The position numbers and the translations under genes were made by a program. A stretch of 32,000 nucleotides of DNA from Microcystis aeruginosa NIES-2549 (GTDB lineage: Bacteria > Cyanobacteriota > Cyanobacteriia > Cyanobacteriales > Microcystaceae). The notes beneath the pieces were generated by a model, which saw only the letters and a list, made by a program, of their open reading frames with translations, made no database searches and was not told the DNA's origin. Positions 9,782-27,384 of the stretch are shown one piece after another (within the stretch, counting starts at the first letter, position 1; each line of letters begins with the position of its first letter). The stretch covers positions 3,750,001 to 3,782,000 of the forward strand of contig NZ_CP011304.1 in NCBI RefSeq assembly GCF_000981785.2, written 5' to 3'.

Positions 9782-9791
9782 CTCTACTCTT

Positions 9792-10003: not shown

Positions 10004-13000
10004 AATACAGTTCCTTATTTGGTTTTGCCAAAGATTCATTAACTGAGTTTCCATTGCTTTAATCCAGGTGGCCGTTTGAAATAGTGGTAAATCTCCCTGT
10101 TTTTGCTGCCATTGCTGAGTGAATTGGCGCAGTTCCTCCCAGTGGGTCCCCCAATAAATTGCTTGGACTTGATAGGATTCCCTACTTTCACAGACAAAAG
10201 ATTCTAAACCAGCAGCGTGGCAAATACTCATCCCCATTCGCGAAGCAAAAGTATCTCCAGGACAAGTCAGTAAAGGAACGCCAGCTTGAATGGCGCAAAC
10301 AGAAGTCGCTCCGCCATTATACAGAAACGTATCTAAAAACAAATCTGCCTGCCGACACACAGAGATGAATTCCCATGGCGAACGCTTAACTAAAAAGACA
10401 AGACGCTCTGGGTCAACGCCTGCGGTTTTCGCTTTTGTTCGCAGGGTTTGGGAAATATCCTCAGAAGACTCCGCCAACCACAGCACAGCGTTGGGTACAG
10501 CTTGCAAAATCTTGAGCCAGCAAGCAAAGAGTTCAGGCGACCATTTATCAGTGCGATTAAAACAAGCATAGACAAATCCCTCGTCTGGTAATCCCAGTTC
10601 CGACCGCGATGGCGGTGGTTCAGAAAAAGACAAAGGAGTAGTAACAAAAACGTGGGGTAATTCCACTAAAGTTTCCCTGTAATATTCCGCCAAATCTGGG
10701 GGAATTAAAAAGCGATCGCCCAGGATGTAGGGGATAAAATCTGCACCAAGGGTATCAGGATAACCCAGATAGTGGAGTTGCAGGGGAGCCGGTTGAAGTG
10801 CGAGAATTTCGGGACGACAGAGATTCGTATAACCACAGAGGTCGATTAGGATATGAATGCCATCACTGTGGATTTTCTCGGCGGCGGCTTCCACGCTCAG
10901 GGGGGCGATTGTTTCATAGTGGTCACACCCGGACCGAATCTGCTCCGTAATCTCATCAGTCGTATTCGACAGGGAATAGGCATATACCTCAAATTGATCG
11001 CGGTTATGGTATGCAAAAAGCTCCCGAATTAAAAAGCCGACAGCATGGTTGCGAAAATCGGCGGAGAGATAGCCAATCCGTAGTTTAGACGGTGTTTCTC
11101 GCGGGAAAATAAACCCTAAGCGGCGCTTCGACTCTACCATCCGCGCCTCGATACTTTTTGCCCAGTGACGGTTAAAGTCCCGGTGGAGAGTGAGAGAAGC
11201 GGGAAAACTGTTAAGAGAAAGGGGAGGTAGGGCCGCGTTTTCCTGGGTTTGAAGATAGTTCTCGAGCCGCGCTAAAAGCGCCGACATCCGTTGGTCATAG
11301 TCGTCCCAATCGCAAAGAGCAACTTGAAGATGTTCTCGCCGATATAGCACATTCAAATTATCCGGTTCCAGAGTTAAAGCATAATTAAAACACTCTAACC
11401 CCTTATTCGGATTGCCTTCCGCTTCATAAATTTCTCCAAGATTGCGATAAATACCTGGGATTTCGGGGTTGAGATCTAATGCTTTCTTAAAACAGAATTT
11501 TGCCCCGGTGATATTATTAACGCTCATTAGCAATCCCCCTAAATTCTGGTAGGCGGCGATATAATTTTCATCCAGACGGATTGCTTCTCGGTAATATTCC
11601 ATCGCTGCCGCAATATCTCCCAATTGCCGATAGAGATCCCCCAGCGCCAAATGCAAAGAAGCGCAAGGAAGGTAAATTAATCCCTGCTGCAAAAGTTGGA
11701 TTGCTTCTTGATAGCGGTGTTCATTGCTATACAATCCTCCCAAATTCTGATAAGCTACTAATAAATTCGGTTGCAGTTGAATCGCTTTTTGAAAAGCTTC
11801 AATTGCCTCTGGTAAATTCCCCTCCAGTTGCCACAAACTCCCTAAATTGCAATAGGTTGGAGCGTAATTGGGAAGTAGTTGGAGCGCTGATTGATAGAGG
11901 GCGATCGCCCCTGAATAATCCTGAAGTGCTACCCGTTGTTTCGCCTCCTTAAAAATAGTTTTTAGTTGAAATTTAAGGGAAAGATCAACTTTCTCATCCG
12001 CCTTTGCAAGTGTCAAATTAGATGGCTCTTCTTGGGAAACACTTGCAAGAGTTTTGTTCAGTAATTCCTGAAACAGTTGGTAAGATTCTTGGGCAAATCT
12101 TTGGGGTTGCCATAAGGTCGCTTGATGGTCGGTTTGTTTCGATTGCTGTAAGCGTTCTCGAATTTGTTGGCGAAGTTCAGAATCAGTCCCGTATCGCACT
12201 CCCCACTCAATATATTCTTCCCAACTGTAGGCGACACCTTCATCAATTCCCAAATTTTGCAGGAACGAATAGCCAAAACGAGATACCGCCTGTTTTCCGC
12301 AGCGAGTAACTAACGGTACATTAAACCAAAGAAACTCTAAATTGTGGCTCCCGCCATTGTAAGGATAACTGTCTAAACCCACATCACCAACATAGTAAAA
12401 TAGGCGATGTTCTTCCTCTAATTTTGGGCGTTCTAACCAACGACAGCGTTGGGGATCAACCCCAGCTTTTTCGCACTCTTCTTGATAGATTGTATGCCGA
12501 TAACTATAGCCTTTGTGGAGCAAAATACTGTTAGGTACTTGTTTGAGAATCGCCACCTGAGATTTCACCAAATCGCGGGTCAGTTTTTTCCCCGGTTTCA
12601 CCGAAAGATAAACCACCGTATCTGGTTCAATTTGTAAATTCTGACGCAATGTCTCACGCTCAAATGCTAGTACCGGAAAATCTTCGATCGCTATACCAGT
12701 CTCAGATAGATAAAGTAATTGTTCTTGATAGTATTGTTGTAACTCTGGCGGGTGGGTACGGCGATCGCAGAGGTAATAATTTTTCTCAGAAATATAAGGC
12801 GGCTCGCAACCTAACCAGGACACCACCACCGGCGCTGGTCGTTGGGCCAAAAGTAAAGCGTGCTTAAAATTCATTAAAGAATCAAGGTCAATCAAAATAT
12901 CGAGCCGATCAGCCCTAAGTTTTTCTAGAATTTCTTGCGGTGTTTGCTGAGAAAGATCGCTAAACTTTGCCCCTGTATGTTGAAAAGAATGCGTCAGATC

Positions 13001-15379
13001 ATCAGTCGCAGCAACACCAGTTTGGTACAAGAAAAGATAGGGGGTTAACTGCGCCCAGCCTTGAAGAATACTGCGACAACACCAACCGACAGAATGTCGT
13101 CGAAAATGCTGGGAAATAACGCCGATGCGTAATCCATCATTCCTCGTTTTCTCTTCTAATTCCCCACTATTTTGAGGAGAACTAGAGACCGGAAAAAAAT
13201 CAAGACAGTGCTGATGGTAAGCTTGGCTAATCAGTTGACTAAGGCGACTATTAGCAGCCGGATCGTCTCGCAAGTAGGGCAAACTAAAGAGGAGATATTG
13301 GTAAAGTTTTTGGGCTGCTTTTTCTTGTAAGTCTAGCTCCGGCTTTAAGAGGAGTTCTTCTAGGGCAGAAAAATACTGTTGGGACTGAGCATAAAAGCCA
13401 AATTCTAAATAGCCAGCCGTCAAGATGGTCAGCAGAACAATTCGATCAGATAGAGAAATTTCGCTATGGGGATAGTCCTGAATCTGGGCGTAGATTGTCC
13501 CCAGATTGTCATAAGCAGTTATCAAATCTGGTTTAATTTCTAACGCCCGTTGAAAAGCTTGAATCGCTTCTGATAATTTCCCCTCAAGTTGCCACAAACT
13601 CCCCAAATTGCAATAGGTTGGGGCGTAATTGGGAAGTATTTGTAGCGCTGATTGATAGCAGGCGATCGCCCCTGAATAATCCTGAAGCGCTACCCGTTGT
13701 TTCGCCTCCTCAAACAGGCTTTTTATTTGAACTTTGAGCAAAGGATCAGCCTTCTCCTGTGACGCTTGCTCTCGCAAATCAGGATGACCTTTGGTGGCCA
13801 ACATCTGATTACCCCAAGCATCAATCTTCCAGCCTCGCCCCTTGAGAAGGGGTTCTAAAGCCGCACTCGTCCAGCGGCTAGGGGTATAGAAAACGCGGAG
13901 AGTCTTTATCCCAGCATCCCAGCAATCCTTTTCCAACACACTCACTAAACGGGTAGCAATCCCTTGGTGACGGTAAGACGGCTCGACAAATAAAGAAATG
14001 ATTTCTGCTGTACCATCTGGCGAGTATTCACCAATCACAAAACCGAGTAAATCTCCCTCAAGCGCAGCAGATACACCGACAATTTCCCCCTTGGGGGACT
14101 GATTTTTCCAGCGGACCTGCAAACTCGGGAACATGATCCCATCATAAGGGGCGAGGCTTTCAGGATTAAGGTGATAGACCCGTTGGAAATTAATCGCAGC
14201 ATTGAGAGGCAGGTCCAGTCGGTTCCAGGCTTCCTCTTCCCCTTTAGCAAGCATCGTTGTGGCTTCCGATGGGGAAGTAGTCGCCTCTGGTACGCCAGCG
14301 ATGGGTGCTTTCGGTCCAAGACTGGGACGCTTAACCGTTGGTCTTGTCACCATTAACCCCTGACTTTCCGGGAAACAGACCAAACGTTCAATATCTTCAT
14401 TTTGTAAACCCAATAACTTCGGTCGTATCACCCCGGGTAAGACCACCACATCGAATAATTCTTCAATAGTGTCGTTAAAAATCAGAGAGTGGACAATTTC
14501 TCCGGTATTTAAATCCACTACCATTAGACCGCACAGAGCCTTATGTCCCGTTGCTAGAAGGCGTTCTTCCAACACTAGACCGCTAAACACCGCCGACCGT
14601 AACTTAGAAAGTCCGACAAAGGCATAGTTTTTCCAAAAGGCAAGCCCTCGCACAAAAGCCGAACAAAAGGTGATGGGATAAAATTTTTCCGCTTCAATAT
14701 AACCCAATTCTCCTGAACCCGAATTTAGCACCCAGAGTTTATCTCGATAAAAACGGGGAGAGTGGGGCATTGACAGTCCCCGCATGATAATTTCGTTACT
14801 GGGAAGATGGAGTAAAATGCCGCCATCCTGACGACAATTTCGCCAACCGGCTCCCTGATTAGTCCCACTGCAAGCGCTCAGATAAATTGGCTGTCCTTCT
14901 ACCAACGCCAATCCGTTTAAATGACAGCGGTCTTCCGCCCGCAGCTCAGAAATAAACGGCGGTTGCCAAATCGGGTTAAAACTATATCCAGTTTTGAGTT
15001 CAGCGAGACAACTAAAATCAGTATTAACAAATATTAGTTTTCCTTCTCCATCTAGTGCCACATCATGGACATTTACATTCCCCGTGGTGTAGGCTGAACT
15101 CGGTACATAAAGGCGATCGCCGTCTTGAAAAGTTTCTCCCGGTACGAGGCGGTTTTCCAGAGTCCAAATTTGATAGCGGGTACTCATGTAGAGAGAAGTG
15201 GAATCAGCATACAGTCCCATCGGTTTGTCGAACAAACGTTCCTGTAGCGTAATGCGCCCATCTTCATAACTTCCCAACATAATCAGTCGATTAGTTTGGT
15301 AAGTCGTGAAAGCAACACTAATTTTTTCTTGTTGTAACCAAGCTCCCAAATTCGGTGAGCATTCAATTTTTAAATCCAT
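10001..15379 (-). CDS. 1,792-aa multidomain protein: TIGR03032-like beta-propeller / GNAT acetyltransferase / TPR / GT41-like (divergent) / TPR / GT41-like (OGT-SPINDLY type)
   Basis: - aa 1-335 match the conserved TIGR03032 pattern (ISVAFTTYQ..., YVPSSAYTTGNVNVHD, EDRCHLNGLAL, GLSMPHSPRFY, LNSGSGELG, CGLMVVDLNTGEIVH).
- aa ~430-530 are GNAT (YRHQGIATRL).
- There are two TPR blocks.
- There are two LRIG(V/Y)xSxxFRxHxVG...YNGG(S/A)T modules typical of glycosyltransferase family 41.
- ATG start. Confidence 0.88.
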   Translation of the reverse strand: MDLKIECSPNLGAWLQQEKISVAFTTYQTNRLIMLGSYEDGRITLQERLFDKPMGLYADSTSLYMSTRYQIWTLENRLVPGETFQDGDRLYVPSSAYTTGNVNVHDVALDGEGKLIFVNTDFSCLAELKTGYSFNPIWQPPFISELRAEDRCHLNGLALVEGQPIYLSACSGTNQGAGWRNCRQDGGILLHLPSNEIIMRGLSMPHSPRFYRDKLWVLNSGSGELGYIEAEKFYPITFCSAFVRGLAFWKNYAFVGLSKLRSAVFSGLVLEERLLATGHKALCGLMVVDLNTGEIVHSLIFNDTIEELFDVVVLPGVIRPKLLGLQNEDIERLVCFPESQGLMVTRPTVKRPSLGPKAPIAGVPEATTSPSEATTMLAKGEEEAWNRLDLPLNAAINFQRVYHLNPESLAPYDGIMFPSLQVRWKNQSPKGEIVGVSAALEGDLLGFVIGEYSPDGTAEIISLFVEPSYRHQGIATRLVSVLEKDCWDAGIKTLRVFYTPSRWTSAALEPLLKGRGWKIDAWGNQMLATKGHPDLREQASQEKADPLLKVQIKSLFEEAKQRVALQDYSGAIACYQSALQILPNYAPTYCNLGSLWQLEGKLSEAIQAFQRALEIKPDLITAYDNLGTIYAQIQDYPHSEISLSDRIVLLTILTAGYLEFGFYAQSQQYFSALEELLLKPELDLQEKAAQKLYQYLLFSLPYLRDDPAANSRLSQLISQAYHQHCLDFFPVSSSPQNSGELEEKTRNDGLRIGVISQHFRRHSVGWCCRSILQGWAQLTPYLFLYQTGVAATDDLTHSFQHTGAKFSDLSQQTPQEILEKLRADRLDILIDLDSLMNFKHALLLAQRPAPVVVSWLGCEPPYISEKNYYLCDRRTHPPELQQYYQEQLLYLSETGIAIEDFPVLAFERETLRQNLQIEPDTVVYLSVKPGKKLTRDLVKSQVAILKQVPNSILLHKGYSYRHTIYQEECEKAGVDPQRCRWLERPKLEEEHRLFYYVGDVGLDSYPYNGGSHNLEFLWFNVPLVTRCGKQAVSRFGYSFLQNLGIDEGVAYSWEEYIEWGVRYGTDSELRQQIRERLQQSKQTDHQATLWQPQRFAQESYQLFQELLNKTLASVSQEEPSNLTLAKADEKVDLSLKFQLKTIFKEAKQRVALQDYSGAIALYQSALQLLPNYAPTYCNLGSLWQLEGNLPEAIEAFQKAIQLQPNLLVAYQNLGGLYSNEHRYQEAIQLLQQGLIYLPCASLHLALGDLYRQLGDIAAAMEYYREAIRLDENYIAAYQNLGGLLMSVNNITGAKFCFKKALDLNPEIPGIYRNLGEIYEAEGNPNKGLECFNYALTLEPDNLNVLYRREHLQVALCDWDDYDQRMSALLARLENYLQTQENAALPPLSLNSFPASLTLHRDFNRHWAKSIEARMVESKRRLGFIFPRETPSKLRIGYLSADFRNHAVGFLIRELFAYHNRDQFEVYAYSLSNTTDEITEQIRSGCDHYETIAPLSVEAAAEKIHSDGIHILIDLCGYTNLCRPEILALQPAPLQLHYLGYPDTLGADFIPYILGDRFLIPPDLAEYYRETLVELPHVFVTTPLSFSEPPPSRSELGLPDEGFVYACFNRTDKWSPELFACWLKILQAVPNAVLWLAESSEDISQTLRTKAKTAGVDPERLVFLVKRSPWEFISVCRQADLFLDTFLYNGGATSVCAIQAGVPLLTCPGDTFASRMGMSICHAAGLESFVCESRESYQVQAIYWGTHWEELRQFTQQWQQKQGDLPLFQTATWIKAMETQLMNLWQNQIRNCI

Positions 15380-15552
15380 AAAAAATACATGACTTACGAA
15401 ACTCCCAGGACGGGAGCACTGTTTCCTCCTCCAGTTGACAAATTTCTCGCCAGAATTCTTGTTCGGAAGCGCTGGGTTCAGTCATAGTCTGGTTACGACT
15501 TGACCCAAGCGGCGATTCAGTAGGCGTAATCCCTCACCTTGATGGTCTATAC

Positions 15553-15578
15553 CCTGGCGCAACGAAAGCTGCGCCAGG
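15553..15578 (-). terminator. 9-bp-stem hairpin downstream of the PEP-CTERM gene (weak terminator candidate)
   Basis: CCTGGCGCA-acgaaagc-TGCGCCAGG, 56 nt after the stop at 15634. There is no clear U-tract on the minus strand, hence the low confidence. Confidence 0.3.
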
Positions 15579-15633
15579 CTCTCAAGGAACAGACTGAGGA
15601 ATGCAGGTTTGAATTTCTAGTTAGACTGACTTT

Positions 15634-16290
15634 CTAAGCATCCTTGTTTTGTTTCTTATTCCTTTTGCCATGCTTTTTTTTAAGAATCGGGAGAGCGACT
15701 AAAACCACGCCAGTACCAAGAATAGTTGAGGGTTCGGGAATCTGCTCAGGGGGTTCGGGAATCTGCTCAGGGGTGAAGTTAAAATTAGTAATCGTTAAAA
15801 CCCCAGGCCCGCCGGTGTTGTTGTCGGTTTCGACAATAAAACCAAAAGTTTGTCCCGCCGTCAGAGACAAGGAAGAGACATGGTAATTATCGCCGTTTTG
15901 GAACCCTAAATAAGTGGGAGTGTTATTGATAATGTAACCCCCGCGATCGCCCGCCGCGCCTGGTGTATAAGGAACGTTTTCACCAGCAAAGGTCCAAGCA
16001 AAAGAAACTGTCCCTCCCTGAGTAATGGGGCCTGCTATCCAGTTGGTAGTTCCAGATGCCAAACTCTCATCATTTCCACCAGTCAAAACTACAGTTCCAC
16101 TTGCGGCATTAGTGGTATCTACTGAGCCATCAGCATCACTGTTATTGAGAGTAAAATTCCCTGGAGCAAATATGCCAGCGAATCCAAGAGCTAAGGCAGG
16201 GGAATGAAACCCGACAACCGCAGCAGTGGCGACAGTTGCTAGGAGAAAACTCCTGGAAGGCTTTAGACGAGAAACGAAGGAAGTATTCAT
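15634..16290 (-). CDS. PEP-CTERM sorting-domain secreted protein
   Basis: N-terminal signal peptide (LLATVATAAVVGFHSPALALG). C-terminal PEP motif, hydrophobic helix and basic tail (PEPSTILGTGVVLVALPILKKKHGKRNKK). ATG start. Confidence 0.85.
   Translation of the reverse strand: MNTSFVSRLKPSRSFLLATVATAAVVGFHSPALALGFAGIFAPGNFTLNNSDADGSVDTTNAASGTVVLTGGNDESLASGTTNWIAGPITQGGTVSFAWTFAGENVPYTPGAAGDRGGYIINNTPTYLGFQNGDNYHVSSLSLTAGQTFGFIVETDNNTGGPGVLTITNFNFTPEQIPEPPEQIPEPSTILGTGVVLVALPILKKKHGKRNKKQNKDA
15731..15772. repeat. perfect 21-bp tandem duplication (GGTTCGGGAATCTGCTCAGGG x2) inside the PEP-CTERM signal
   Basis: Direct reading of the sequence. It encodes PEQIPEP-PEQIPEP on the minus strand. Confidence 0.9.
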
Positions 16291-16345
16291 TGGTTTTGCG
16301 ATTAATTAATTGGCGAAAGACTGATGAATTAGTGGTTGATGAAAT

Positions 16346-16458
16346 GGCGTTGCTGATTTGAGATATGAATCTTCTCTTGTGGAATTTTTAAAACCTAGAC
16401 CCAAACTAACTTTTCGATGGGTGCAAGGTTGGCATTCATACCTTGATTCAGCAACGCC
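16346..16458. mobile_element. small MITE-like element, family E (~113 bp)
   Basis: Inverted termini GGCGTTGCTGA(t)T ... (a)TTCAGCAACGCC. Its left ~45 nt recur at 1859..1905 (downstream of cydB) with a few mismatches. Confidence 0.45.
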
Positions 16459-16472
16459 GATGAAATTACCCC

Positions 16473-17183
16473 TTAAATTGTGAAGTAATGATTGACATTT
16501 AAGGTGCCAGCAGTAGTAGGAGCATTCAATAACGAGCCAAACTTGACCAGCAGATCTGCTGTACCATTAAAGGCGGCTGTTCCATCATTTACCGATAGGT
16601 AGTAGGAGGAGCCATACCTGAATAAAAGTGATTCATTGGCTTGTAAATTGGCAGCAGCATAAGCCTGACTTGTGGCATTGCTTAAACTGGTTGCGGTTAT
16701 CACGCCGGCGTAGGAGAGTTTACTGGGGAGGGAGGATAATTGCAGGCGATCGCCCTCGGTCGAATTAAAGCGAGAAATAGTATCCATCGAGTTAAGCAGG
16801 GAATCGCTGAAGTTGGGATAAAAGAAGGTGTCCTTTCCGCTATAACCCAGGAGGTTATCAGCACCAGGCCCCCCTTCAAAAGTATTGGTGCCGAAGTAGC
16901 CAAATAGGTTATCATCTCCCCCCAATCCTCGAAATACTTCATCGGGGACAGTCGTCGGTGGTGCCGCCAGATTACCTGAGAGGTTATCTTTGCCTGAAGT
17001 TCCCGTAAAAGTAATCGCCCCAGTTGTATTATCGTCATTGATGATCTTGCCTGTTATGCTTCCCGATGAAATGGTTGTTCCCACCGGATTACTCAGGATC
17101 AAGGTGAGGGTTTCGTCAGGCTCTACGTCTGTATCGCCTTGAACCGGAACAGTGATTGTCCCGGAAAGCTGACAGGGGGACAA
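16473..17183 (-). CDS. detached C-terminal fragment of the giant surface-protein gene (end of a Calx-beta domain, RTX-like GGxGxD repeats, T1SS-type C-terminal target-like tail)
   Basis: The ORF opens with a TTG that lies inside the MITE terminal repeat. From 17168 downward it continues the interrupted Calx-beta domain (TITVPVQGDTDVEPDETLTLILSNP...INDD). This is followed by GGDDNLFGY.GTNTFEGGPGADNLLGYSGKDTFFY...DTISRFNSTEGDRLQLS. Confidence 0.7.
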   Translation of the reverse strand: MSPCQLSGTITVPVQGDTDVEPDETLTLILSNPVGTTISSGSITGKIINDDNTTGAITFTGTSGKDNLSGNLAAPPTTVPDEVFRGLGGDDNLFGYFGTNTFEGGPGADNLLGYSGKDTFFYPNFSDSLLNSMDTISRFNSTEGDRLQLSSLPSKLSYAGVITATSLSNATSQAYAAANLQANESLLFRYGSSYYLSVNDGTAAFNGTADLLVKFGSLLNAPTTAGTLNVNHYFTI

Positions 17184-17400
17184 GCTGGCTGAACTCCTTA
17201 CATCACAAGCTTTTTGGGGTGTTGGAGCGAAAAAGTTCGATGCAGCTCACCCCCCGTTGTTGATAAATATTTCTAGTAAGCTCGCCCAAATCCCTGATTA
17301 TTTCGTTAGCTTTTTGGCTGAAAGCGATGTATCTGTTTGTAACTGAGGAGCCTCAAAACCTTTGTGGACAATGCTTTGAGAGGTCTTGTCCCCCTGTCAG
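17169..17400. mobile_element. MITE family C (232 bp) inserted in the giant gene
   Basis: Perfect 16-bp TIRs: CTGACAGGGGGACAAG (17169..17184) and CTTGTCCCCCTGTCAG (17385..17400). They are flanked by a 9-bp direct duplication CCCGGAAAG (17160..17168 and 17401..17409). No ORF. Confidence 0.9.
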
Positions 17401-20400
17401 CCCGGAAAGAGTACCGGCAGTGAGGCGAAGTGTGCCGCTAGTGCTGACATAATCATTGCCAGCCGTGGCGGTTCCCGCAGTGACACTATAATCGACACTC
17501 ACATCTTGCCCACTACGAGCAGAGAGGCTGACTTGGAAGATCAACTGGGTTGTTGTGCCGCTATTGCCTTCCAGCACTTGGGAAGGTTGTGCCGAGATGA
17601 TGGGAAGTGAATCATTATCGTTGATTGTCCCAGTGCTGGTACTGTTGGCGATCGCCCCGTTGGTCGGGTTGCTGAGATTAACGCTGAAGGTTTCCGGGGT
17701 GGGTTCGTAGAGGGTATCGTCGTTGATTACCACACTAATCGTTTTACTGCTATCTCCCGTGCCAAAGCTAAGGCTACCGCTGGTGCTGACGTAGTCTCCA
17801 TTAGCAATGGTACTGCCGAAAGCCGTTCCGTTGGCGGTGGCATAGTTGACTGTAGCAGTGCTGGTTCCGTTACTAATTGGATCGGTGGCGGTGACGGTAA
17901 AGATGGCAGTGCCAGCATTTTCATTGACTGTTACATTGTTAATGCTGAATACGGCTTGGTCAATGACCCCGATGGTAACGGTTTTGTTGGTTGATACCCC
18001 ACTGCCGTTTTGATCGGTGGCAATGACATCAATACTGTAGCTAGATTTAGTTTCGTAATCTGCGGAGGCTTTGAGACGTACTTCTCCGTTATTACTGCCA
18101 ATTGTGAAGGCACTGGCATCGTTTCCGCCTAGACTCCAAACGATTTGGTTAACTGGGCCATCGGTATCGGTGGCGGCGGCGGTATAGATGAGGGTGCTGA
18201 TGGAGGCATTTTCTAGTACCGTAGCGCTGTTGCTGCTGGTGATGACGGGTGCTTGGTTTGTATTTGTATCATCATTTTGAATTGTTCCCGTCGCCGTTGC
18301 TGTAGTAATCGTGGCATTGGTCGGGGTGTCAAGGGTGACAGTAAACCCTTCATCGGGTTCAACAGTCGTGTCTCCTGAGACATTGACGGTGATGGTTTGA
18401 CTGGTTTCATTGGCGGCAAAACTCACTGTCCCAGAAGGTAAGATTCCCCCAACAAAGTCAGTAGCATTGGCTTGGTTAGTCCCAGTCCCGGTAACAGTCC
18501 AGTTGGCGCTACTGCTACCAGAGGTATCCCCACTACGAGTGACGGTGAAGGTAAAGGCTTTTGTCCCTGTATTTCCTTCGGTTTGGCTGAGAGTCGAGGG
18601 GGTGATTGCCAAAGCTGGATCATCATCATCATTTTGAATTGTTCCCGTCGCCGTTGCTGTAGTAATCGTGGCATTGGTCGGGGTGTCAAGGGTGACAGTA
18701 AACCCTTCATCGGGTTCAACAGTCGTGTCTCCTGAGACATTGACGGTGATGGTTTGACTGGTTTCATTGGCGGCAAAACTCACTGTCCCAGAAGGTAAGA
18801 TTCCCCCAACAAAGTCAGTAGCATTGGCTTGGTTAGTCCCAGTCCCGGTAACAGTCCAGTTGGCGCTACTGCTACCAGAGGTATCCCCACTACGAGTGAC
18901 GGTGAAGGTAAAGGCTTTTGTCCCTGTATTTCCTTCGGTTTGGCTGAGAGTCGAGGGGGTGATTGCCAAAGCTGGATCATCATCATCATTTTGAATTGTT
19001 CCCGTCGCCGTTGCTGTAGTAATCGTGGCATTGGTCGGGTTAGAAAGGGTGACGGTAAACTCTTCATTTGTTTCAACAGTCGTGTCTCCTGAGACATTGA
19101 CGGTGATGATTTGACTGGTTTCATTGGCGGCAAAACTCACTGTCCCTGACGGTAAGGTTCCCCCAACAAAGTCAGTAGCATTGGCCTGATTAGTCCCAGT
19201 CCCGGTAACAGTCCAGTTGGCGCTACTGGTACCAGTGGTATTCCCACTGCGAGTGACGGTGAAGGTAAAGGCTTTTGTCCCTGTATTTCCTTCGGTTTGG
19301 CTGAGAGTCGAGGGGGTGATTGCCAAAGCTGGATCATCATCATCATTTTGAATTGTTCCCGTCGCCGTTGCTGTAGTAATCGTGGCATTGGTCGGGGTGT
19401 CAAGGGTGACAGTAAACCCTTCATCGGGTTCAACAGTCGTGTCTCCTGAGACATTGACGGTGATGATTTGACTGGTTTCATTGGCGGCAAAACTCACTGT
19501 CCCAGAAGGTAAGATTCCCCCAACAAAGTCAGTAGCATTGGCTTGGTTAGTCCCAGTCCCGGTAACAGTCCAGTTGGCGCTACTGGTACCAGTGGTATTC
19601 CCACTGCGGTTGACGGTGAAGGTAAAGGCTTTTGTCCCTGTATTTCCTTCGGTTTGGCTGAGAGTCGAGGGGGTGATTGCCAAAGCTGGATCATCATCAT
19701 CATTTTGAATTGTTCCCGTCGCCGCTGCTGTGGTAATTGTGGCATTGGTCGGGGTGTCAAGGGTGACAGTAAACCCTTCATCGGGTTCAACAGTCGTGTC
19801 TCCTGAGACATTGACGGTGATGATTTGACTGGTTTCATTGGCGGCAAAACTCACTGTCCCAGAAGGTAAGATTCCCCCAACAAAGTCAGTAGCATTGGCT
19901 TGGTTAGTCCCAGTCCCGGTAACAGTCCAGTTGGCGCTACTGGTACCAGTGGTATTCCCACTGCGGTTGACGGTGAAGGTAAAGGCTTTTGTCCCTGTAT
20001 TTCCTTCGGTTTGGCTGAGAGTCGAGGGGGTGATTGCCAAAGCTGGATCATCATCATCATTTTGAATTGTTCCCGTCGCCGCTGCTGTGGTAATTGTGGC
20101 ATTGGTCGGGTTAGAAAGGGTGACGGTAAACTCTTCATTTGTTTCAACAGTCGTGTCTCCTGAGACATTGACGGTGATGATTTGACTGGTTTCATTGGCG
20201 GCAAAACTCACTGTCCCTGACGGTAAGGTTCCCCCAACAAAGTCAGTAGCATTGGCCTGATTAGTCCCAGTCCCGGTAACAGTCCAGTTGGCGCTACTGC
20301 TACCAGAGGTATCCCCACTACGAGTGACGGTGAAGGTAAAGGCTTTTGTCCCTGTATTTCCTTCGGTTTGGCTGAGAGTCGAGGGGGTGATTGCCAAAGC

Positions 20401-23400
20401 TGGATCATCATCATCATTTTGAATTGTTCCCGTCGCTGTGTTCGCCGTACCTACTGTATAACCGGTTCCCCCAGCGAGGGTCAAAATGACGGTTTCATCC
20501 GGTTCCATTGTTGTGTCAGTAGTGGGGTCAACCGTTACAGTCGCAGTCGCTGACCCAGCCAAGAAGTTGACACTGGTGGGAATAGAAGCGTAATCGGTTC
20601 CATTGGTTGCTGTACCACTGACTGTATAGTTAACCGTCAAAGGATTGGTTGTTAGTCCTGTACGGGTGAAGGTATAAACCAGATTTGTTGTCCCGTCTTC
20701 GGTAACACTTCCAGGCGCAACCGCAACCGTAACACTGGTATCGTCATTTGTAATTGTTCCCGTCGCTGTGCTCGCCGTACCTAAGGTATAACCGGTTCCC
20801 TCAGTCAGGGTGAAAATGACGGTTTCATCCGGTTCAACTATTGTGTCAGCAGTGGGGTCAACCGTTACAGTCGCAGTTGCAGAATTAGCCGCGAAGGTGA
20901 TGGTTTTTCCGGTTCCGGGGGTTGCTCCACTGTAGTCGCTGCTCTCGGCTGTTCCGGTGATGCTGTAGTTGACCGTCAAAGGATTGTTTATTAGTCCTGT
21001 ACGGGTGAAGGTATAAACCAGATTTGTTGTCCCATCTTCATTAACACTTCCAGGCGCAACCGCAAGGGTGATGCCAGGTAAATCGTCATTCGTAATTGTT
21101 CCCGTCGCCGTTGCTGTCGTAATATAGGCGTTCGTCGGGCTAGAAAGGGTGACGGTAAACCCTTCATCGAGTTCAACGTCGGTGTCTCCTGACACATTGA
21201 CGGTGATGGTTTGACTGGTTTCATTGGCGGCAAAATTCACCGTCCCTGACGGTAAAGTTACTCCAAAGTCAGTAGCATTGGCTGGATTAGTCCCAGTCCC
21301 GGTAACAGCCCAGTTGACGCTACTGCTATCAGAGGTATCCCCAGTGCGGGTGACGGTAAAGGTAAAGGCTTTTGTCCCTGTATCTCCTTCGGTTTGGCTG
21401 GCATTAGTCGCCGCAATCGCTAACCAAGGAACATTCTGATAAAACAGCGTGTTGCCAAATTCTTCTCCGACAAAGGCATCCAGGTCGCCGTCGCCGTCAA
21501 TATCCACTAACGTCGGCTTGACAAAAGTAGACACCTTCGTCAGACCGAAGGGGTTGGTGGAGGGAGCAGCGAAGGTGGGCGCACTGGCACTCCCCGTATT
21601 CCGATAAAACAGCGTATTGCCAAGGGAGTTGCCAACGAAGGCATCCAGGTCGCCGTCGCCGTCAATATCCACTAACGTCGGCTTGGCATACAAACCCACA
21701 TTCGTCAGACCGAAGGGGTTGGTGGAGGGAGCAGCGAAGGTGGGCGCACTCGCACTTCCCGTATTCCGATAAAACACTATATTGCCATCGCTGTTTCCGG
21801 CGAAGGCATCCAGGTCGCCGTCGTTGTCAATATCCACAAACGTCGGCTTGGCATTAGCACCTAAATCTGTCAGACCGAAGGGGTTGGTGGAGCGAGCAGC
21901 GAAGGTGGGCGCACTGGCACTCCCCGTATTCCGATAAAACAGTATATTGCCGTCTCCGTTGCCGACGAAGGCATCCAGGTCGCCGTCGCCGTCAATATCC
22001 ACAAACGTCGGCGCGGCAGCCACCGCCACAGTCGTCAGACCGAAGGGGTTGGTGGAGGGAGCGGCGAAGGTGGGCGCACTCGCACTCCCTGTATTCCGAT
22101 AAAACAGCGTATTGCCATCGAAGTTGCTGACAAAGGCATCCAGGTCGCCGTCGCCGTCAATATCCACTAACGCCGGATGGGAAAAACTAAGCACATCCGT
22201 CAGACCGAAGGGGTTGGTGGAGGCAGGGGCGAAGGTGGGATCTTGTTGCGCGATGTCATTATCGGTAATTTGGGCAACGACGTTAGGGATACTTCTGCCG
22301 TTATAGCCACTGTCGCTACTGCTGACTGTGGTGGTAATTACGCCCCGGTGCGGCCCTTCCCCAATCGTGTCATTGACTGCGGTTACAGTCACAGTTTGAG
22401 GGGTATTCCAGTTAGCCGAGGTGAAGGTCAGGCTTGTCTGACTCAGGCTTAACTGGTTGCCCGGATTCAGGGCAAGGATGACATCTGCTGTGGGAGCCCC
22501 CTTTAGAGCAACGGTATAGGTGGCTGTTGCGCCGCTTTCGGTTACTTGCAGTAGTGTATTGCTGAGGATGATTCCGGGATCATCATTGAGAATTGTTCCC
22601 GTCGCCGTTGCTGTCGTAATCGTGGCATTCGTCGGACTAGAAAGGGTGACGGTAAACCCTTCATCGGGTTCAATAGTCGCGTCTCCTGATACATTGACGG
22701 TGATGACTTTACTGGTTTCATTGGCGGCAAAACTCACTGTCCCAGAAGGTAAGATTCCCCCAAAGTCAGTAGTATTGGCTGGGTTAGTCCCAGTCCCGGT
22801 AACAGCCCAGTTAGCGCTACTGGTACCAGAGGTATTCCCACTGCGGGTGACGGTAAAGGTAAAGGCTTTTGTCCCTGTATCTCCTTCAGTTTCGCTGGCA
22901 TCAGTCGCCGCAATCGCTAAGGCAGTATCATCATTCGTAATTGTTCCCGTCGCTGTGCTCGCCGTACCTAAGGTATAACCGGTTCCCTCAGTGAGGGTGA
23001 AAATGACGGTTTCATCCGGTTCAACTATTGTGTCAGCAGTGGGGTCAACCGTTACCGTCGCAGTCGTTGACCCAGCCAAGAAGGTGATGGTTTTTCCGTC
23101 TCCCGGGGTTACTCCACTGTAGTCGCTGCTATCGGCTGTTCCGGTGATGCTGTAGTTAACCGTCAAAGCATTGGTTGTTAGTCCTGTACGGGTGAAGGTA
23201 TAAACCAGATTTGTTGTCCCATTTTCGGTAACACTTCCAGGCGCAACCGCAAGGGTGATGATAGGGAAATCGTCATTCGTAATTGTTCCCGTCGCTGTGT
23301 TCGCCGTACCTACTGTATAACCGGTTCCCCCAGCGAGGGTCAAAATGACGGTTTCATCCGGTTCCATTGTTGTGTCAGTAGTGGGGTCAACCGTTACCGT

Positions 23401-26400
23401 CGCAGTCTCTGACCCAGCCGCGAAGGTGATGGTTTTTCCGGTTCCGGGGGTTGCTCCACTGTAGTCGCTGCTATCGGCTGTACCACTGACTGTATAGTTA
23501 ACCGTCAAAGCATTAGTCGTTACTCCACTACGGGTGAAGGTATAAACCAGATTTGGTGTTCCGTCTTCGGTAACACTTCCAGGCGCAACCGCAACCGTAA
23601 CACTGGTATCGTCATTTGTAATTGTTCCCGTCGCTGTGCTCGCCGTACCTAAGGTATAACCGGTTCCCTCAGTGAGGGTGAAAACGACGGTTTCATCCGG
23701 TTCAACTATTGTGTCAGTAGTGGGGTTAACCGTTACAGTCGGTGCAGTCGCTGATCCAGCCGCGAAGGTGATGGTTTTTCCGGCTCCGGGGGTTGCTCCA
23801 ATGTAGTCGCTGCTATCGGCTGTTCCGGTGATGCTGTAGTTGACCGTCAAAGCATTGGTTGTTGGTCCTGTACGGGTAAATGTATAAACCAGATTTGTTG
23901 TCCCGTCTTCGGTAACACTTCCAGGCGCAACCGCAAGGGTGATGCTAGGTAAATCGTCATTCGTAATTGTTCCCGTCGCCGTTGCTGTCGTAATATAGGC
24001 ATTCGTCGGGCTAGAAAGGGTGACGGTAAACCCTTCGTTAGCTTCAAAGTCGGTGTCTCCTGACACATTGACGGTGATGGTTTGACTGGTTTCATTGGCG
24101 GCAAAATTCACCGTCCCTGACGGTAAGGTTTCCCCAAAGTCGGCAGCATTGGCCTGATTAGTCCCAGTCACGGTAACAGCCCAGTTGACGCTACTGCTAT
24201 CAGAGGTATCCCCACTGCGGGTGACGGTAAAGGTAAAGGCTTTTGTCCCTGTATCTCCTTCGGTTTGGCTGGCATTAGTCGCCGCAATCGCTAACCAAGG
24301 AACATTCTCATAAAACAGCGTGTTGCCCACCCAGTTGCCAATAAAGGCATCCAGGTCGCCGTCGCCGTCAATATCCACTAACGTCGGCGCGGCATCATAA
24401 ACCACATCCGTCAGACCGAATGGGTTGTAAGAGGGAGCAGCGAAGGTGGGCGCACTGGCACTCCCCGTATTGCGATAAAACAGCGTATTGCCAAGCTCGT
24501 TGCCGATGAAAGCATCCAAGTCGCCGTCGCCGTCAATATCCACAAACGTCGGCTGGGCATAAGTAACCACATTCGTCAGACCGAAGGGGTTGGTGGAGGG
24601 AGTAGCGAAGGCAGGCGCACTGGCACTCCCGGTATTGCGATAAAACAGCGTATTGCCATAGTAGTTGCCAATAAAGGCATCCAGGTCGCCGTCGTCGTCA
24701 ATATCCACTAACGTCGGCACGGCATCATAAATCACATCCGTCAGACCGAAGGGGTTGGTGGAGGGAGCAGCGAAGGTGGGGGCGCTGGCACTCCCCGTAT
24801 TCCGATAAAACAGCGTATTGCCCTCTTCGTTTCCGATGAAAGCATCCAGGTCGCCGTCGCCGTCAATATCCACAAACGTCGGCGCGGCATACAAACCCAC
24901 ATCCGTCAGACCGAAGGGGTTGGTGGAGCCAGCAGCGAAGGCAGGCGCACTCGCACTTCCCGTATTCCGATAAAACAGCGTATTACCAAAGAAGTCGCCG
25001 ACAAAGGCATCCAGGTCGCCGTCGTTGTCAATATCCACTAACGTCGGCGTGGTATAATCACCCGCATCCGGCAGACCGAAGGGGTTGGTGGAGGCAGGGG
25101 CGAAGGTGGGATCTTGTTGCGCGATGTCGTTATCGGTGATTTGGGCAAGGACGTTAGCAACAGGTATGCCGTTATAGACACTGTCGCTACTGCTGACTGT
25201 GGTGCTAATTACGCCCCGGTGCGGTCCTTCCCCAATCGTGTCATTGACTGCGGTTACAGTCACAGTTTGGGGGGTATCCCAGTTAGCCGAGGTGAAGGTC
25301 AGGCTTGTCTGACTCAGGCTTAACTGTCTGCCCGGATTCAGGGTAAGGATGACATCTGCTGTGGGAGCATCGTTAAGAACAACGGTATAGGTGGCTGTTG
25401 CGCCGTCTTCGGTTACTTGCAGTAGTGTATTGCTGAGGGCGATTTTGGGATCATCATTGAGAATTGTTCCCGTCGCCGTTGCTGTGGTAATCGTGGCATT
25501 CGTCGGGCTAGAAAGGGTGACGGTAAACCCTTCATTAGTTTCAATGTCGATGTCTCCTGACACATTGACGGTGATGGTTTTACTGGTTTCATTGGCGGCA
25601 AAACTCACTGTCCCAGAAGGTAAGATTCCCCCAAAGTCAGTAGCATTGGCTGGGTTAGTCCCAGTCCCGGTAACAGCCCAGTTGGCGCTACTGGTACCAG
25701 AGGTTTTCCCACTGCGGGTGACGGTAAAGGTAAAGGCTTTTGTCCCTGTATCTCCTTCAGTTTGAATTGCATTCGTCGCCGCAATCGCTAAGCCAGGATC
25801 GTCATTTGTAATTGTTCCCGTCGCTGTGCTCGCCGTACCTACTGTATAACCGGTTCCCTCAGTGAGGGTGAAAACGACGGTTTCATCCGGTTCAAATGTT
25901 AGATCAAAAACGGGGTCAACCGTTACAGTCACAGTTGCAGAATTAGCCGCGAAGGTGATGGTTTTTCCGGTTCCGGGGGTTGCTCCACTGTAGTCGCTGC
26001 TATCGGCTGTTCCGGTGATGCTGTAGTTGACCGTCAAAGCATTGGTTGTTGGTCCTGTACGGGTGAAGGTATAAACCAGATTTGTTGTCCCATCTTCATT
26101 AACACTTCCAGGCGCAACCGCAAGGGTGATGCTAGGTAAATCGTCATTCGTAATTGTTCCCGTCGCCGTTGCTGTCGTAATATAGGCATTCGTCGGGCTA
26201 GAAAGGGTGACGGTAAACCCTTCATTAGCTTCAAAGTCGGTGTCTCCTGACACATTGACGGTGATGACTTGACTGGTTTCATTGGCGGCAAAATTTACTG
26301 TCCCTGACGGTAAAGTTACTCCAAAGTCGGCAGCATTGGCCTGATTAGTCCCAGTCCCGGTAACAGCCCAGTTGACGCTACTGCTATCAGAGGTATCCCC

Positions 26401-27324
26401 ACTGCGGGTGACGGTAAAGGTAAAGGCTTTTGTCCCTGTATCTCCTTCGGTTTGAATGGCAGTCGTCGCCGCAATCGCTAACCAAGGAACATTCTGATAA
26501 AACAGCGTGTTGCCCGCCGAGTTGCCAATAAAGGCATCCAGGTCGCCGTCGCCGTCAATATCCGCTAACGCCGGCTTGGCATACAAACCCACATTCGCCA
26601 GACCGAAGGGATTGGTGGAGGCAGCAGCGAAGGTGGGCGCACTGGCACTCCCCGTATTGCGATAAAACAGGGTATTGCCCGCCAAGTTGCCGACCAAGGC
26701 ATCCAGGTCGCCGTCGCCGTCAATATCCACAAACGTCGGCTTGGCAAAACTACCCACATCCGTCAGACCGAAGGGGTTGGTGGAGGCAGTAGCGAAGGCG
26801 GGGGCACTCGCACTCCCCGTATTGCGATAAAACCGTATATTGCCAGCCGAGTCGCCAACAAAGGCATCCAGGTCGCCGTCGCCGTCAATATCCACAAACG
26901 TCGGCGCGGCACCATTTCCCACATTTACCAGACCGAAGGGGTTGATGGAGGGAGTAGCGAAGGTGGGCGCACTCGCACTCCCCGTATTGCGATAAAACCG
27001 CGTATCGCCATAGTGGCTGCCGACGAAGGCATCCAGGTCGCCGTCGTTGTCAATATCGACAAACGTCGGCATGGCACCATTTACCACATTCGTCAGACCG
27101 TAGGGGTTGGTGGAGGGAGCAGCGAAGGCAGGCGCACTGGCACTTCCCGTATTCCGATAAAACAGGGTATTGCCAGCCCCATTTCCGACGAAGGCATCGA
27201 GGTCGCCGTCGCCGTCAATATCCACTAACGTCGGCATGGCATAATCACCCACATTCGTTAGACCGAAGGGGTTGCTGGAGGCGGGGACGAAGGTGGGATC
27301 TTGAGGGAAGTTTGGTTCAGGCAT
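17353..27324 (-). CDS. giant FG-GAP/VCBS + Calx-beta + cadherin-domain surface protein (truncated by MITE insertion)
   Basis: - There are 15 FG-GAP/VCBS-type blades (P(T/A)(F/L)VDIDGDGDLDAF(V/I)GN...LFYRNTGSASAP.FA) in three blocks of five.
- There are more than 20 Calx-beta-like modules (..EGDTGTKAFTFTVTRSG...VSFAANETS..ITVNVSGD...E..EGFTVTLS.PTNA.I...TATGTI.NDD).
- There is one cadherin-like module (APVITSS...ATDTDG...VRLKASADYE).
- The track start at 27330 is TTG; the ATG at 27324 (MPEPNFPQDPTF) is the likely start.
- The last 12 codons and the stop are read out of the MITE. Confidence 0.9.
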   Translation of the reverse strand: MPEPNFPQDPTFVPASSNPFGLTNVGDYAMPTLVDIDGDGDLDAFVGNGAGNTLFYRNTGSASAPAFAAPSTNPYGLTNVVNGAMPTFVDIDNDGDLDAFVGSHYGDTRFYRNTGSASAPTFATPSINPFGLVNVGNGAAPTFVDIDGDGDLDAFVGDSAGNIRFYRNTGSASAPAFATASTNPFGLTDVGSFAKPTFVDIDGDGDLDALVGNLAGNTLFYRNTGSASAPTFAAASTNPFGLANVGLYAKPALADIDGDGDLDAFIGNSAGNTLFYQNVPWLAIAATTAIQTEGDTGTKAFTFTVTRSGDTSDSSSVNWAVTGTGTNQANAADFGVTLPSGTVNFAANETSQVITVNVSGDTDFEANEGFTVTLSSPTNAYITTATATGTITNDDLPSITLAVAPGSVNEDGTTNLVYTFTRTGPTTNALTVNYSITGTADSSDYSGATPGTGKTITFAANSATVTVTVDPVFDLTFEPDETVVFTLTEGTGYTVGTASTATGTITNDDPGLAIAATNAIQTEGDTGTKAFTFTVTRSGKTSGTSSANWAVTGTGTNPANATDFGGILPSGTVSFAANETSKTITVNVSGDIDIETNEGFTVTLSSPTNATITTATATGTILNDDPKIALSNTLLQVTEDGATATYTVVLNDAPTADVILTLNPGRQLSLSQTSLTFTSANWDTPQTVTVTAVNDTIGEGPHRGVISTTVSSSDSVYNGIPVANVLAQITDNDIAQQDPTFAPASTNPFGLPDAGDYTTPTLVDIDNDGDLDAFVGDFFGNTLFYRNTGSASAPAFAAGSTNPFGLTDVGLYAAPTFVDIDGDGDLDAFIGNEEGNTLFYRNTGSASAPTFAAPSTNPFGLTDVIYDAVPTLVDIDDDGDLDAFIGNYYGNTLFYRNTGSASAPAFATPSTNPFGLTNVVTYAQPTFVDIDGDGDLDAFIGNELGNTLFYRNTGSASAPTFAAPSYNPFGLTDVVYDAAPTLVDIDGDGDLDAFIGNWVGNTLFYENVPWLAIAATNASQTEGDTGTKAFTFTVTRSGDTSDSSSVNWAVTVTGTNQANAADFGETLPSGTVNFAANETSQTITVNVSGDTDFEANEGFTVTLSSPTNAYITTATATGTITNDDLPSITLAVAPGSVTEDGTTNLVYTFTRTGPTTNALTVNYSITGTADSSDYIGATPGAGKTITFAAGSATAPTVTVNPTTDTIVEPDETVVFTLTEGTGYTLGTASTATGTITNDDTSVTVAVAPGSVTEDGTPNLVYTFTRSGVTTNALTVNYTVSGTADSSDYSGATPGTGKTITFAAGSETATVTVDPTTDTTMEPDETVILTLAGGTGYTVGTANTATGTITNDDFPIITLAVAPGSVTENGTTNLVYTFTRTGLTTNALTVNYSITGTADSSDYSGVTPGDGKTITFLAGSTTATVTVDPTADTIVEPDETVIFTLTEGTGYTLGTASTATGTITNDDTALAIAATDASETEGDTGTKAFTFTVTRSGNTSGTSSANWAVTGTGTNPANTTDFGGILPSGTVSFAANETSKVITVNVSGDATIEPDEGFTVTLSSPTNATITTATATGTILNDDPGIILSNTLLQVTESGATATYTVALKGAPTADVILALNPGNQLSLSQTSLTFTSANWNTPQTVTVTAVNDTIGEGPHRGVITTTVSSSDSGYNGRSIPNVVAQITDNDIAQQDPTFAPASTNPFGLTDVLSFSHPALVDIDGDGDLDAFVSNFDGNTLFYRNTGSASAPTFAAPSTNPFGLTTVAVAAAPTFVDIDGDGDLDAFVGNGDGNILFYRNTGSASAPTFAARSTNPFGLTDLGANAKPTFVDIDNDGDLDAFAGNSDGNIVFYRNTGSASAPTFAAPSTNPFGLTNVGLYAKPTLVDIDGDGDLDAFVGNSLGNTLFYRNTGSASAPTFAAPSTNPFGLTKVSTFVKPTLVDIDGDGDLDAFVGEEFGNTLFYQNVPWLAIAATNASQTEGDTGTKAFTFTVTRTGDTSDSSSVNWAVTGTGTNPANATDFGVTLPSGTVNFAANETSQTITVNVSGDTDVELDEGFTVTLSSPTNAYITTATATGTITNDDLPGITLAVAPGSVNEDGTTNLVYTFTRTGLINNPLTVNYSITGTAESSDYSGATPGTGKTITFAANSATATVTVDPTADTIVEPDETVIFTLTEGTGYTLGTASTATGTITNDDTSVTVAVAPGSVTEDGTTNLVYTFTRTGLTTNPLTVNYTVSGTATNGTDYASIPTSVNFLAGSATATVTVDPTTDTTMEPDETVILTLAGGTGYTVGTANTATGTIQNDDDDPALAITPSTLSQTEGNTGTKAFTFTVTRSGDTSGSSSANWTVTGTGTNQANATDFVGGTLPSGTVSFAANETSQIITVNVSGDTTVETNEEFTVTLSNPTNATITTAAATGTIQNDDDDPALAITPSTLSQTEGNTGTKAFTFTVNRSGNTTGTSSANWTVTGTGTNQANATDFVGGILPSGTVSFAANETSQIITVNVSGDTTVEPDEGFTVTLDTPTNATITTAAATGTIQNDDDDPALAITPSTLSQTEGNTGTKAFTFTVNRSGNTTGTSSANWTVTGTGTNQANATDFVGGILPSGTVSFAANETSQIITVNVSGDTTVEPDEGFTVTLDTPTNATITTATATGTIQNDDDDPALAITPSTLSQTEGNTGTKAFTFTVTRSGNTTGTSSANWTVTGTGTNQANATDFVGGTLPSGTVSFAANETSQIITVNVSGDTTVETNEEFTVTLSNPTNATITTATATGTIQNDDDDPALAITPSTLSQTEGNTGTKAFTFTVTRSGDTSGSSSANWTVTGTGTNQANATDFVGGILPSGTVSFAANETSQTITVNVSGDTTVEPDEGFTVTLDTPTNATITTATATGTIQNDDDDPALAITPSTLSQTEGNTGTKAFTFTVTRSGDTSGSSSANWTVTGTGTNQANATDFVGGILPSGTVSFAANETSQTITVNVSGDTTVEPDEGFTVTLDTPTNATITTATATGTIQNDDTNTNQAPVITSSNSATVLENASISTLIYTAAATDTDGPVNQIVWSLGGNDASAFTIGSNNGEVRLKASADYETKSSYSIDVIATDQNGSGVSTNKTVTIGVIDQAVFSINNVTVNENAGTAIFTVTATDPISNGTSTATVNYATANGTAFGSTIANGDYVSTSGSLSFGTGDSSKTISVVINDDTLYEPTPETFSVNLSNPTNGAIANSTSTGTINDNDSLPIISAQPSQVLEGNSGTTTQLIFQVSLSARSGQDVSVDYSVTAGTATAGNDYVSTSGTLRLTAGTLSGLTGGQDLSKHCPQRF
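18274..20415. repeat. six near-identical 357-bp (119-aa) tandem Calx-beta units
   Basis: The boundary motif ATTTTGAAT recurs at 18274, 18631, 18988, 19345, 19702, 20059 and 20416, an exact 357-nt period. The units differ only at a handful of linked positions. Confidence 0.92.
21423..22248. repeat. FG-GAP/VCBS five-blade block 3 (approximate bounds)
   Basis: Five copies of GCATCCAGGTCGCCGTCG(C/T)CGTCAATATCCAC at ~165-nt spacing. Confidence 0.8.
24294..25120. repeat. FG-GAP/VCBS five-blade block 2 (approximate bounds)
   Basis: Same 55-57-aa blade unit as block 3, five copies. The block ends with the NVPWLAIAAT linker as in blocks 1 and 3. Confidence 0.8.
26480..27324. repeat. FG-GAP/VCBS five-blade block 1 (approximate bounds)
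   Basis: Five blade units starting at the very N-terminus of the protein. Confidence 0.8.
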
Positions 27325-27354
27325 AGTCAATTAATTTTGTCGGATGTTTCTGGA

Positions 27355-27384
27355 ATTTTAGTGTATTCTCTCAATTTAAGTCAA
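27355..27384 (-). promoter_or_regulatory. candidate sigma70-type promoter of the giant gene
   Basis: On the minus strand: TTGACT (27384..27379), an 18-nt spacer, then TAAAAT (27360..27355). It lies ~30 nt upstream of the ATG at 27324. Pattern match only. Confidence 0.3.

Follow-up and report, generated by a model that had tools for sequence, protein, structure and literature searches.

MITEs, or miniature inverted-repeat transposable elements, have been described in Microcystis before. Those of M. aeruginosa NIES-843 were catalogued as MaeMITEa-h, among them MaeMITEd with 233 bp and 30 copies (Kaneko et al. 2007, PMC2779907), and in M. aeruginosa PCC 7806 a MITE of 187 bp split the sbp gene (PMC11448079). 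Anabaena and Nostoc carry the Nezha MITEs (Zhou et al. 2008, as summarised in PMC3184786). Here we analyse a 32-kb stretch of the M. aeruginosa NIES-2549 genome (contig NZ_CP011304.1, positions 3,750,001 to 3,782,000; hereafter the window, from whose first letter all positions are counted), in which a 232-bp MITE lies inside a gene for a giant surface protein. Very probably, this MITE was mobilised by a transposase of the IS4 family of insertion sequences (ISs), was inserted recently and truncated the gene.

The window MITE resembles the MaeMITE groups, and MaeMITEd in particular, in its host genus, its multiple copies, its inverted repeats and its lack of a transposase. MaeMITEd measures 233 bp, one or two bases more than the 231-232 bp seen here, a comparison by length alone that makes the identity of the two a lead only; Kaneko et al. 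name neither a partner IS nor a duplication length for MaeMITEd (PMC2779907). With the PCC 7806 element it shares the circumstances of the event, namely a coding gene hit in one of two near-identical strains and a partner IS inferred from shared ends and equal duplication length. That element, however, has imperfect 9-nt ends (GGCTCTTCG), 8-bp duplications and a partner of the ISL3 family, whereas the one in the window has perfect 16-nt ends, 9-bp duplications and a partner of the IS4 family. As far as the summary in PMC3184786 describes them, the Nezha elements are also cyanobacterial, also reveal recent mobility through filled and empty sites in close relatives, and have ends common to an autonomous IS of a related organism and not of the same genome; the same summary gives them 130-170 bp, another sequence and ISNpu3 as partner.

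MITE disruption of Microcystis genes is already described, and the present case is a new, well-resolved instance of it, not a new kind of element. The 16-mer that forms its ends was found in no paper of the searchable literature. What the case offers is a clean recent transposition between near-identical strains of the Lake Kasumigaura type, which supports MITEs, besides full ISs, as drivers of strain differences in Microcystis. In addition, the MITE family (ends CTGACAGGGGGACAAG, 9-bp duplication) and its IS4-family IS may serve as a strain-typing marker and as a testable pair of transposase and substrate.

The element, its family and its empty sites

The features of the interrupted locus are the following:

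17169..17400, no strand assigned: MITE of 232 bp, non-autonomous, without a transposase gene; member of subfamily 'cluster 1' in a MITE family of Microcystis
17169..17184, plus strand: left terminal inverted repeat, CTGACAGGGGGACAAG; equal to the left end of a 1,275-bp IS4-family IS on plasmid p1 of M. aeruginosa NIES-2481
17385..17400, minus strand: right terminal inverted repeat, CTTGTCCCCCTGTCAG on the plus strand; perfect complement of the left end
17160..17168, no strand assigned: target-site duplication, copy 1, CCCGGAAAG; read as CTT TCC GGG along the coding strand; present once in each of the empty alleles (loci L025, L031 and L020)
17401..17409, no strand assigned: target-site duplication, copy 2, CCCGGAAAG
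17401..27324, minus strand: 5' part of the gene for the giant surface protein, with 3,308 native codons; repeats of the FG-GAP/VCBS, Calx-beta and cadherin-like types; uninterrupted in the NIES-2481 orthologue
17353..17400, minus strand: read-through into the MITE, 15 element-encoded codons (LTGGQDLSKHCPQRF) and a TGA stop; the truncated product ends at 3,323 aa
16473..17168, minus strand: orphaned 3' fragment, 231 codons including the repeated LSG; rest of the last Calx-beta domain, RTX nonapeptide/serralysin-C region and bluetail domain

The two inverted ends match at 16 of 16 positions, and the exact 9-bp duplication abuts the element on both sides. The repeat finder extended the inverted repeat to 17 nt (17168/17401), but the additional pair falls within the duplication and is most simply due to chance. 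When the 16-mer was searched with up to three mismatches, the window yielded 3 occurrences against 0.25 expected, a count reached in none of 100 shuffles; only two matches were exact, and these are the MITE's own ends. Stops in all six frames leave the element without coding capacity, it holds no Pfam-bearing open reading frame (ORF), and no consensus promoter or terminator was found within 17169-17400. As is usual for prokaryotic MITEs, the element is well under 600 bp and combines terminal inverted repeats and the lack of a transposase gene with a duplication of fixed length, dispersed copies, ends common to an autonomous IS that makes the same duplication, and filled/empty polymorphism.

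Two other ideas about the element were tried and rejected. The single-sequence fold is more stable than that of shuffles (z about -4), mainly through pairing of the two ends. A structured RNA was dismissed: there was no Rfam match at E up to 1, and in the consensus fold of 19 copies the covariation term was only -1.06 kcal/mol, with compensatory changes in 2 of 47 pairs. Nor is the element an internal dimer or a long palindrome, its halves being, in direct or inverted comparison, no more similar than shuffles except at the ends.

The element belongs to a family, widespread in Microcystis, of MITEs that mostly measure 226-232 bp. When one genome per species was scanned for the two ends at a distance of 170-200 bp, 18 loci were found, all from Microcystis and spread over at least nine assemblies, and a search of plasmids added one copy, on plasmid p1 of NIES-2481. 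Exact 9-bp flanking repeats, each of a different sequence, surround 10 of these 19 copies. Once oriented, the copies fall into three subfamilies: the window copy groups with four others at 93.5-97.8% identity, and the other two are about 70% identical to it, with length nearly kept at 226-232 bp. A 34-nt probe for the window's subfamily revealed 21 further loci in metagenome contigs, the origin of which was not checked, and most of the full-length copies among them carry 9-bp repeats. No copy with both ends was found in viral contigs. Taking all data together, an exact 9-bp duplication is present at 21 of 33 distinct sites. At about half of these 21, removal of the MITE restores a stop-free frame of at least 200 codons, so that the hit on a gene in the window is not unusual for the family. 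Two internally deleted copies (L048:3326-3486, 161 bp; L050:3290-3442, 153 bp) are flanked by 9-bp duplications of their own, read as CTTATCTGG and TTGCTAAAG, so that the interior is dispensable and only the ends are needed for movement.

The original prediction, made from the window alone, had placed the element, its perfect 16-bp ends and the flanking direct repeats exactly where they were found, and had called the element a MITE. This reading is borne out by the further copies that searches for the ends brought to light, elements of 150-232 bp at some 30 unrelated sites in genomes of Microcystis and in metagenome contigs, many of them with their own 9-bp duplications, by the absence of coding capacity and by filled and empty alleles in near-identical genomes.

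One empty allele is that of NIES-2481, whose chromosome (CP012375.1, locus L025; accession confirmed in PMC5865083) was reached through an exact-protein look-up of the neighbouring 218-aa gene. It is 100% identical to the window from 17168 to 5634, over 11,535 bp, and the 1,000 bp compared on the far side of 17401 are likewise 100% identical. Exactly nine bases, CTTTCCGGG, belong to both alignments, and they are present once; there is no MITE and the gene is uninterrupted. GCA_009811875.1 (locus L031) is empty with the same breakpoints in a flank of 99.2% identity. A syntenic contig of M. panniformis WG22 (locus L020) is also empty at 86-91% nucleotide identity, and encodes an uninterrupted ...NAGTLSGTITVPVQ.... 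In all three orthologous loci the breakpoints lie exactly at the 9-bp repeat; an alignment of this kind is what the original prediction had proposed as a check. None of the other genomes and metagenome contigs examined has the filled allele, and none of the metagenome copies found lies at the window's insertion site. Look-ups by exact protein, made with the truncated product and with the 1,792-aa neighbour, gave no match either. Since the allele is filled here and empty in NIES-2481 between identical flanks, 12.5 kb of which were compared without a substitution, the MITE arrived after the window lineage split from NIES-2481. The recent date that had been proposed from the perfect ends and the intact duplication agrees with this.

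The interrupted gene

As annotated by frame alone, the locus consists of two minus-strand ORFs. The first, 17353..27330, has 3,325 codons counted from a TTG, or 3,323 from the ATG at 27324. The second, 16473..17183, has 236 codons, and its mechanical start (TTG at 17183) lies inside the inverted repeat of the MITE. Both copies of CTT TCC GGG are in frame in these ORFs, and excision of 241 bp (the MITE and one duplication) restores a single minus-strand ORF of 3,536 aa plus stop, that is 10,611 nt or 3,537 codons with the stop, from the ATG at 27324. Its junction reads ...GTLRLTAGTLSG-TITVPVQGDTDVEPDE..., identical to the one that had been predicted. In a 372-aa segment that has the restored junction at residues 144/145, Pfam assigns residues 94-173 to a Calx-beta domain. 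Therefore the insertion interrupts a Calx-beta module, the last one of the gene, and the expectation that the fusion would complete such a module held. The two ORFs are thus parts of a single gene that a mobile element has broken, and they should be annotated as a pseudogene.

The truncated product lacks 228 residues, and with them the RTX/serralysin-C calcium-binding region and the bluetail domain (NF041519, an NCBIfam model of putative surface proteins). In RTX proteins that leave the cell through type I systems, the secretion signal is C-terminal, a rule of the class and not of this Microcystis protein in particular. Because the C-terminus has been removed here, the truncated product is probably neither exported nor anchored.

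The gene is highly repetitive in other respects. A unit of 357 bp, corresponding to Calx-beta modules, is repeated 6.1 times at 96% identity (18268-20436), and a unit of 165 bp forms three arrays (21467-22239, 24310-25110 and 26496-27297). Moreover, the gene is 957 aa (2.87 kb) longer than the NIES-2481 orthologue between otherwise identical flanks, and positions 3234-6110 of NIES-2481 align with two different segments of the window. The difference in length reflects either a segmental duplication that is real or the collapse of a repeat in one of the assemblies.

The partner insertion sequence and the transposase

When the whole of plasmid p1 of NIES-2481 was searched for the 16-mer end, two 100% identical ISs of 1,275 bp were found (L022:4000-5274 and L023:45100-46374), flanked by the 9-bp duplications CGTTGTAGG and ATTTAGCAA. 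Their left end is CTGACAGGGGGACAAG, matching the MITE at 16 of 16 positions; the right end is the complement of CTGGGAGGGGGACAAG, two mismatches short of a perfect inverted repeat, and in a metagenome variant of 96.8% identity (L056) the right end has a single mismatch. MITE and IS are similar over 25-42 bp at the left end and over 21-28 bp (93-95%) at the right end, and not in between. Since the similarity is limited to the termini, the idea that the MITE is a deletion derivative of the IS was rejected.

The IS encodes its transposase in a single ORF without a frameshift (374 aa as annotated, 382 aa in homologues). The protein matches the NCBIfam model of IS4 family transposases, NF033591, with 238.8 bits (cut-off 152) and Pfam DDE_Tnp_1 (PF01609) with 35.8 (cut-off 23). 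At residues 250-264 it also has YQKRFDIEEMFRDFK, which matches the signature Y-(2)-R-(3)-E-(6)-K exactly; De Palmenaer et al. (2008, PMC2266710) give this signature, which includes the glutamate of the DDE triad, as the hallmark of the family. Candidates for the two aspartates, D89 and D149, can be read from AIDRTSW and LGDREF and correspond to D97 and D157 in the numbering of P0083, conserved in an alignment of 35 sequences. The 9-bp duplication fits the range of about 8-13 bp of IS4 and not the 4-6 bp of IS701, ISH3 or IS1634.

An AlphaFold model of the transposase, built with 35 homologues (predicted local distance difference test 72, predicted template modelling score 0.76), was compared with known structures by Foldseek, and the top five matches were all Tn5 transposase (E 1.3e-6 to 4.1e-6, probability 1.00). 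Neither the single sequence nor a profile matched a solved transposase in the PDB; only the comparison of folds did, and in the structural alignment about 12-13% of the residues are identical. There are 2,268 homologues at E up to 1e-20, and the named best matches are nearly all cyanobacterial. One of them is a truncated copy in NIES-843. As this strain carries only a truncated ISMae2 (Kaneko et al. 2007, PMC2779907), ISMae2 is a candidate name for the partner.

The partner is like IS10 and IS50 (of Tn10 and Tn5) in its 5'-CT ends, its 9-bp duplication, its single ORF and its DDE and YREK motifs. Members of the IS10 subgroup are 1,200-1,350 bp long with CT ends and 9-bp repeats (Table 1 of PMC2266710), and those of the IS50 subgroup are 1,350-1,550 bp long with the end consensus CW------Y---CA-A--W- (PMC2266710). 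With its 1,275 bp, CTGAC... ends and 9-bp repeats, the partner falls within the first description. For the second it is too short, and it has G in place of Y at position 9 and G in place of A at position 16; read by eye, the consensus fits at positions 1-2, 13-14 and 19. On size, ends and repeats, as distinct from transposase phylogeny, the partner would therefore be placed better in the IS10 than in the IS50 subgroup.

The original prediction had compared the ends with those of IS50 and the IS4 family and suggested mobilisation in trans by an IS4-type transposase, naming a search for an autonomous parent. That search succeeded in a relative of the window strain, and the IS4 link is supported by the identical 16-nt left end, the 9-bp duplications, the NF033591 match, the YREK motif and the Tn5-like fold; the resemblance to IS50 in particular gives way to IS10.

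Transposases of the Tn5/Tn10 type bind both ends of an element, excise it and insert it at a staggered cut of 9 bp, the repair of which gives the duplication. The MITE, lacking a transposase of its own, was very probably mobilised in trans by a DDE transposase of this type from the IS4 family, supplied by the 1,275-bp IS with the same terminal 16 bp. The enzyme would bind the two inverted ends, excise or copy the MITE and cut the target with a 9-bp stagger, and repair would yield the CCCGGAAAG duplication. We infer that it was the partner's transposase itself that moved the window copy. The insertion hit the last Calx-beta domain of the 3,536-codon gene after the split from NIES-2481 and left a gene that stops after its 3,308 native codons and a 15-residue tail encoded by the element, with the last 228 residues lost.

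Several observations weigh against this account. The window itself, over its 32 kb, has no transposase gene, and the partner is known from a plasmid of NIES-2481. The interior of the MITE is unrelated to that of the IS, which is not what a simple deletion derivative would look like. The structural match to Tn5 has a template modelling score of only 0.43-0.46, in a model with low-confidence stretches. At 12 of the 33 family sites there is no exact duplication. Finally, no copy identical to the window MITE was found, the closest being 97.8% identical.

Consequences of the insertion and other explanations

A stronger claim than ours would be that the insertion is a consequential, strain-specific knock-out of a giant accessory adhesin, reversible by precise excision between the 9-bp repeats. 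We regard this as rather unlikely. If it were true, MITEs driven by IS4 elements would switch traits of the cell surface or the colony in bloom-forming Microcystis, or would be marks of domestication in culture.

It is unlikely, too, that the insertion is a selected and possibly reversible on/off switch of a surface adhesin instead of a neutral or deleterious accident. Selection might come from escape from phages or grazers, or from the loss of colony formation in culture. The target, a giant and variable surface-protein gene within an accessory block of 19.5 kb that is missing from five other strains, would suit such a role. The perfect ends and the duplication would also keep a substrate for precise excision, and a different Microcystis MITE is reported to alter gene expression and growth (PMC11448079). 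On the other hand, there is no evidence of selection and the filled allele was seen only once. A gene of 10.6 kb is simply a large target, and the frequency with which other duplicated insertions of the family break long open frames points the same way.

Could a genuine MITE have been moved by another transposase, for instance one of another family that makes 8-9-bp duplications? Many IS families are present in Microcystis (PMC2779907), and the partner is not an ideal one: it was seen in a sister strain's plasmid and not in the window, its interior has nothing in common with that of the MITE, and its right end differs from the MITE ends at 1-2 positions. Nevertheless, the left ends agree at 16 of 16 positions and remain similar for 25-42 bp inward, the sequence inside the right end is similar as well (21-28 bp at 93-95%), the duplications are of equal length, 9 bp, and about 0.5 Mb of Microcystis loci contained no other type of element with these ends. 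We consider a different mobilising enzyme quite improbable.

An assembly artefact, with a repeat misplaced into the gene during assembly of the source genome, is highly unlikely. The idea draws on the repetitiveness of the gene (the 357-bp unit in 6.1 copies and the 165-bp arrays), on the 957-aa difference from the NIES-2481 orthologue, which makes assembly trouble at the locus conceivable, and on the fact that the other genomes and metagenome contigs examined do not carry the filled allele. A misjoin, however, would not yield an exact 9-bp target duplication that obeys the rule of the family. The sequence around the site is also unique, with 868 bp (17401-18268) separating it from the closest tandem array, and both junctions are precise to the base.

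That the 232 bp are ancestral gene sequence, or an intron or intein-coding insert, lost by the relatives is as good as excluded by the three orthologous loci that lack them with breakpoints exactly at the 9-bp repeat and by the presence of the MITE at about 30 unrelated sites with different duplications; its stops in all frames, a total of 241 bp that is no multiple of three and the lack of an Rfam match or covariation support speak against it as well, and only the formal point that both flanking fragments are ORFs speaks for it. The insertion of a MITE mobilised by an IS4-family transposase remains the reading that we prefer.

The accessory block and other observations

The interrupted gene is part of a 19.5-kb block (window about 9789-29326) that is absent from five other Microcystis genomes, in which the flanking genes, one acetolactate-synthase-like and the other serA, stand about 220-430 bp apart. 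Besides the giant gene, the block contains a 1,792-aa gene with DUF4915, GNAT, TPR and GT41 domains and the 218-aa gene, and it has the look of an accessory island. Near both of its ends there is, in opposite orientations, a repeat of about 200 bp (9792-10007 and 27931-28104), which occurs elsewhere in L027, L029 and L034 at 85-88% identity. This repeat may be another small mobile element, or a substrate for recombination in gain and loss of the island. Between the giant gene and serA, at about 28640-29095 (L025:310-761), there are two short gene calls, one of which has a Cas12f1-like/TnpB zinc-ribbon fragment, a remnant of an IS605-type element.

Two other copies of the MITE family have particular surroundings. 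The one on plasmid p1 (L001:3001-3231, plasmid positions 16448-16678) belongs to another subfamily, is 70% identical to the window copy and has no exact duplication; it occupies a 310-bp gap between a TIGR03985 CRISPR-associated gene and cas10 in a type III-B locus. The second, in L008, is a full MITE without a duplication; 209 bp upstream of it, at L008:1042-1057, there is a single sequence resembling an end, CTGAGAGGGGGACAAG, which equals the right end of the L056 IS variant; the arrangement is possibly a nested or rearranged insertion.

The duplicated targets also point to a target preference. Of the 21 exact duplications, 17 have G or C at position 1 and 15 have G or C at position 9, around an AT-rich core. 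Fourteen of the 21 begin with G at position 1 or have C at position 9, where 38% would be expected (binomial tail 0.008); the counts are slightly inflated, since among the 21 there are a few cases of one site read on both strands. Tn5 has a similar preference for G and C at the ends of its duplications.

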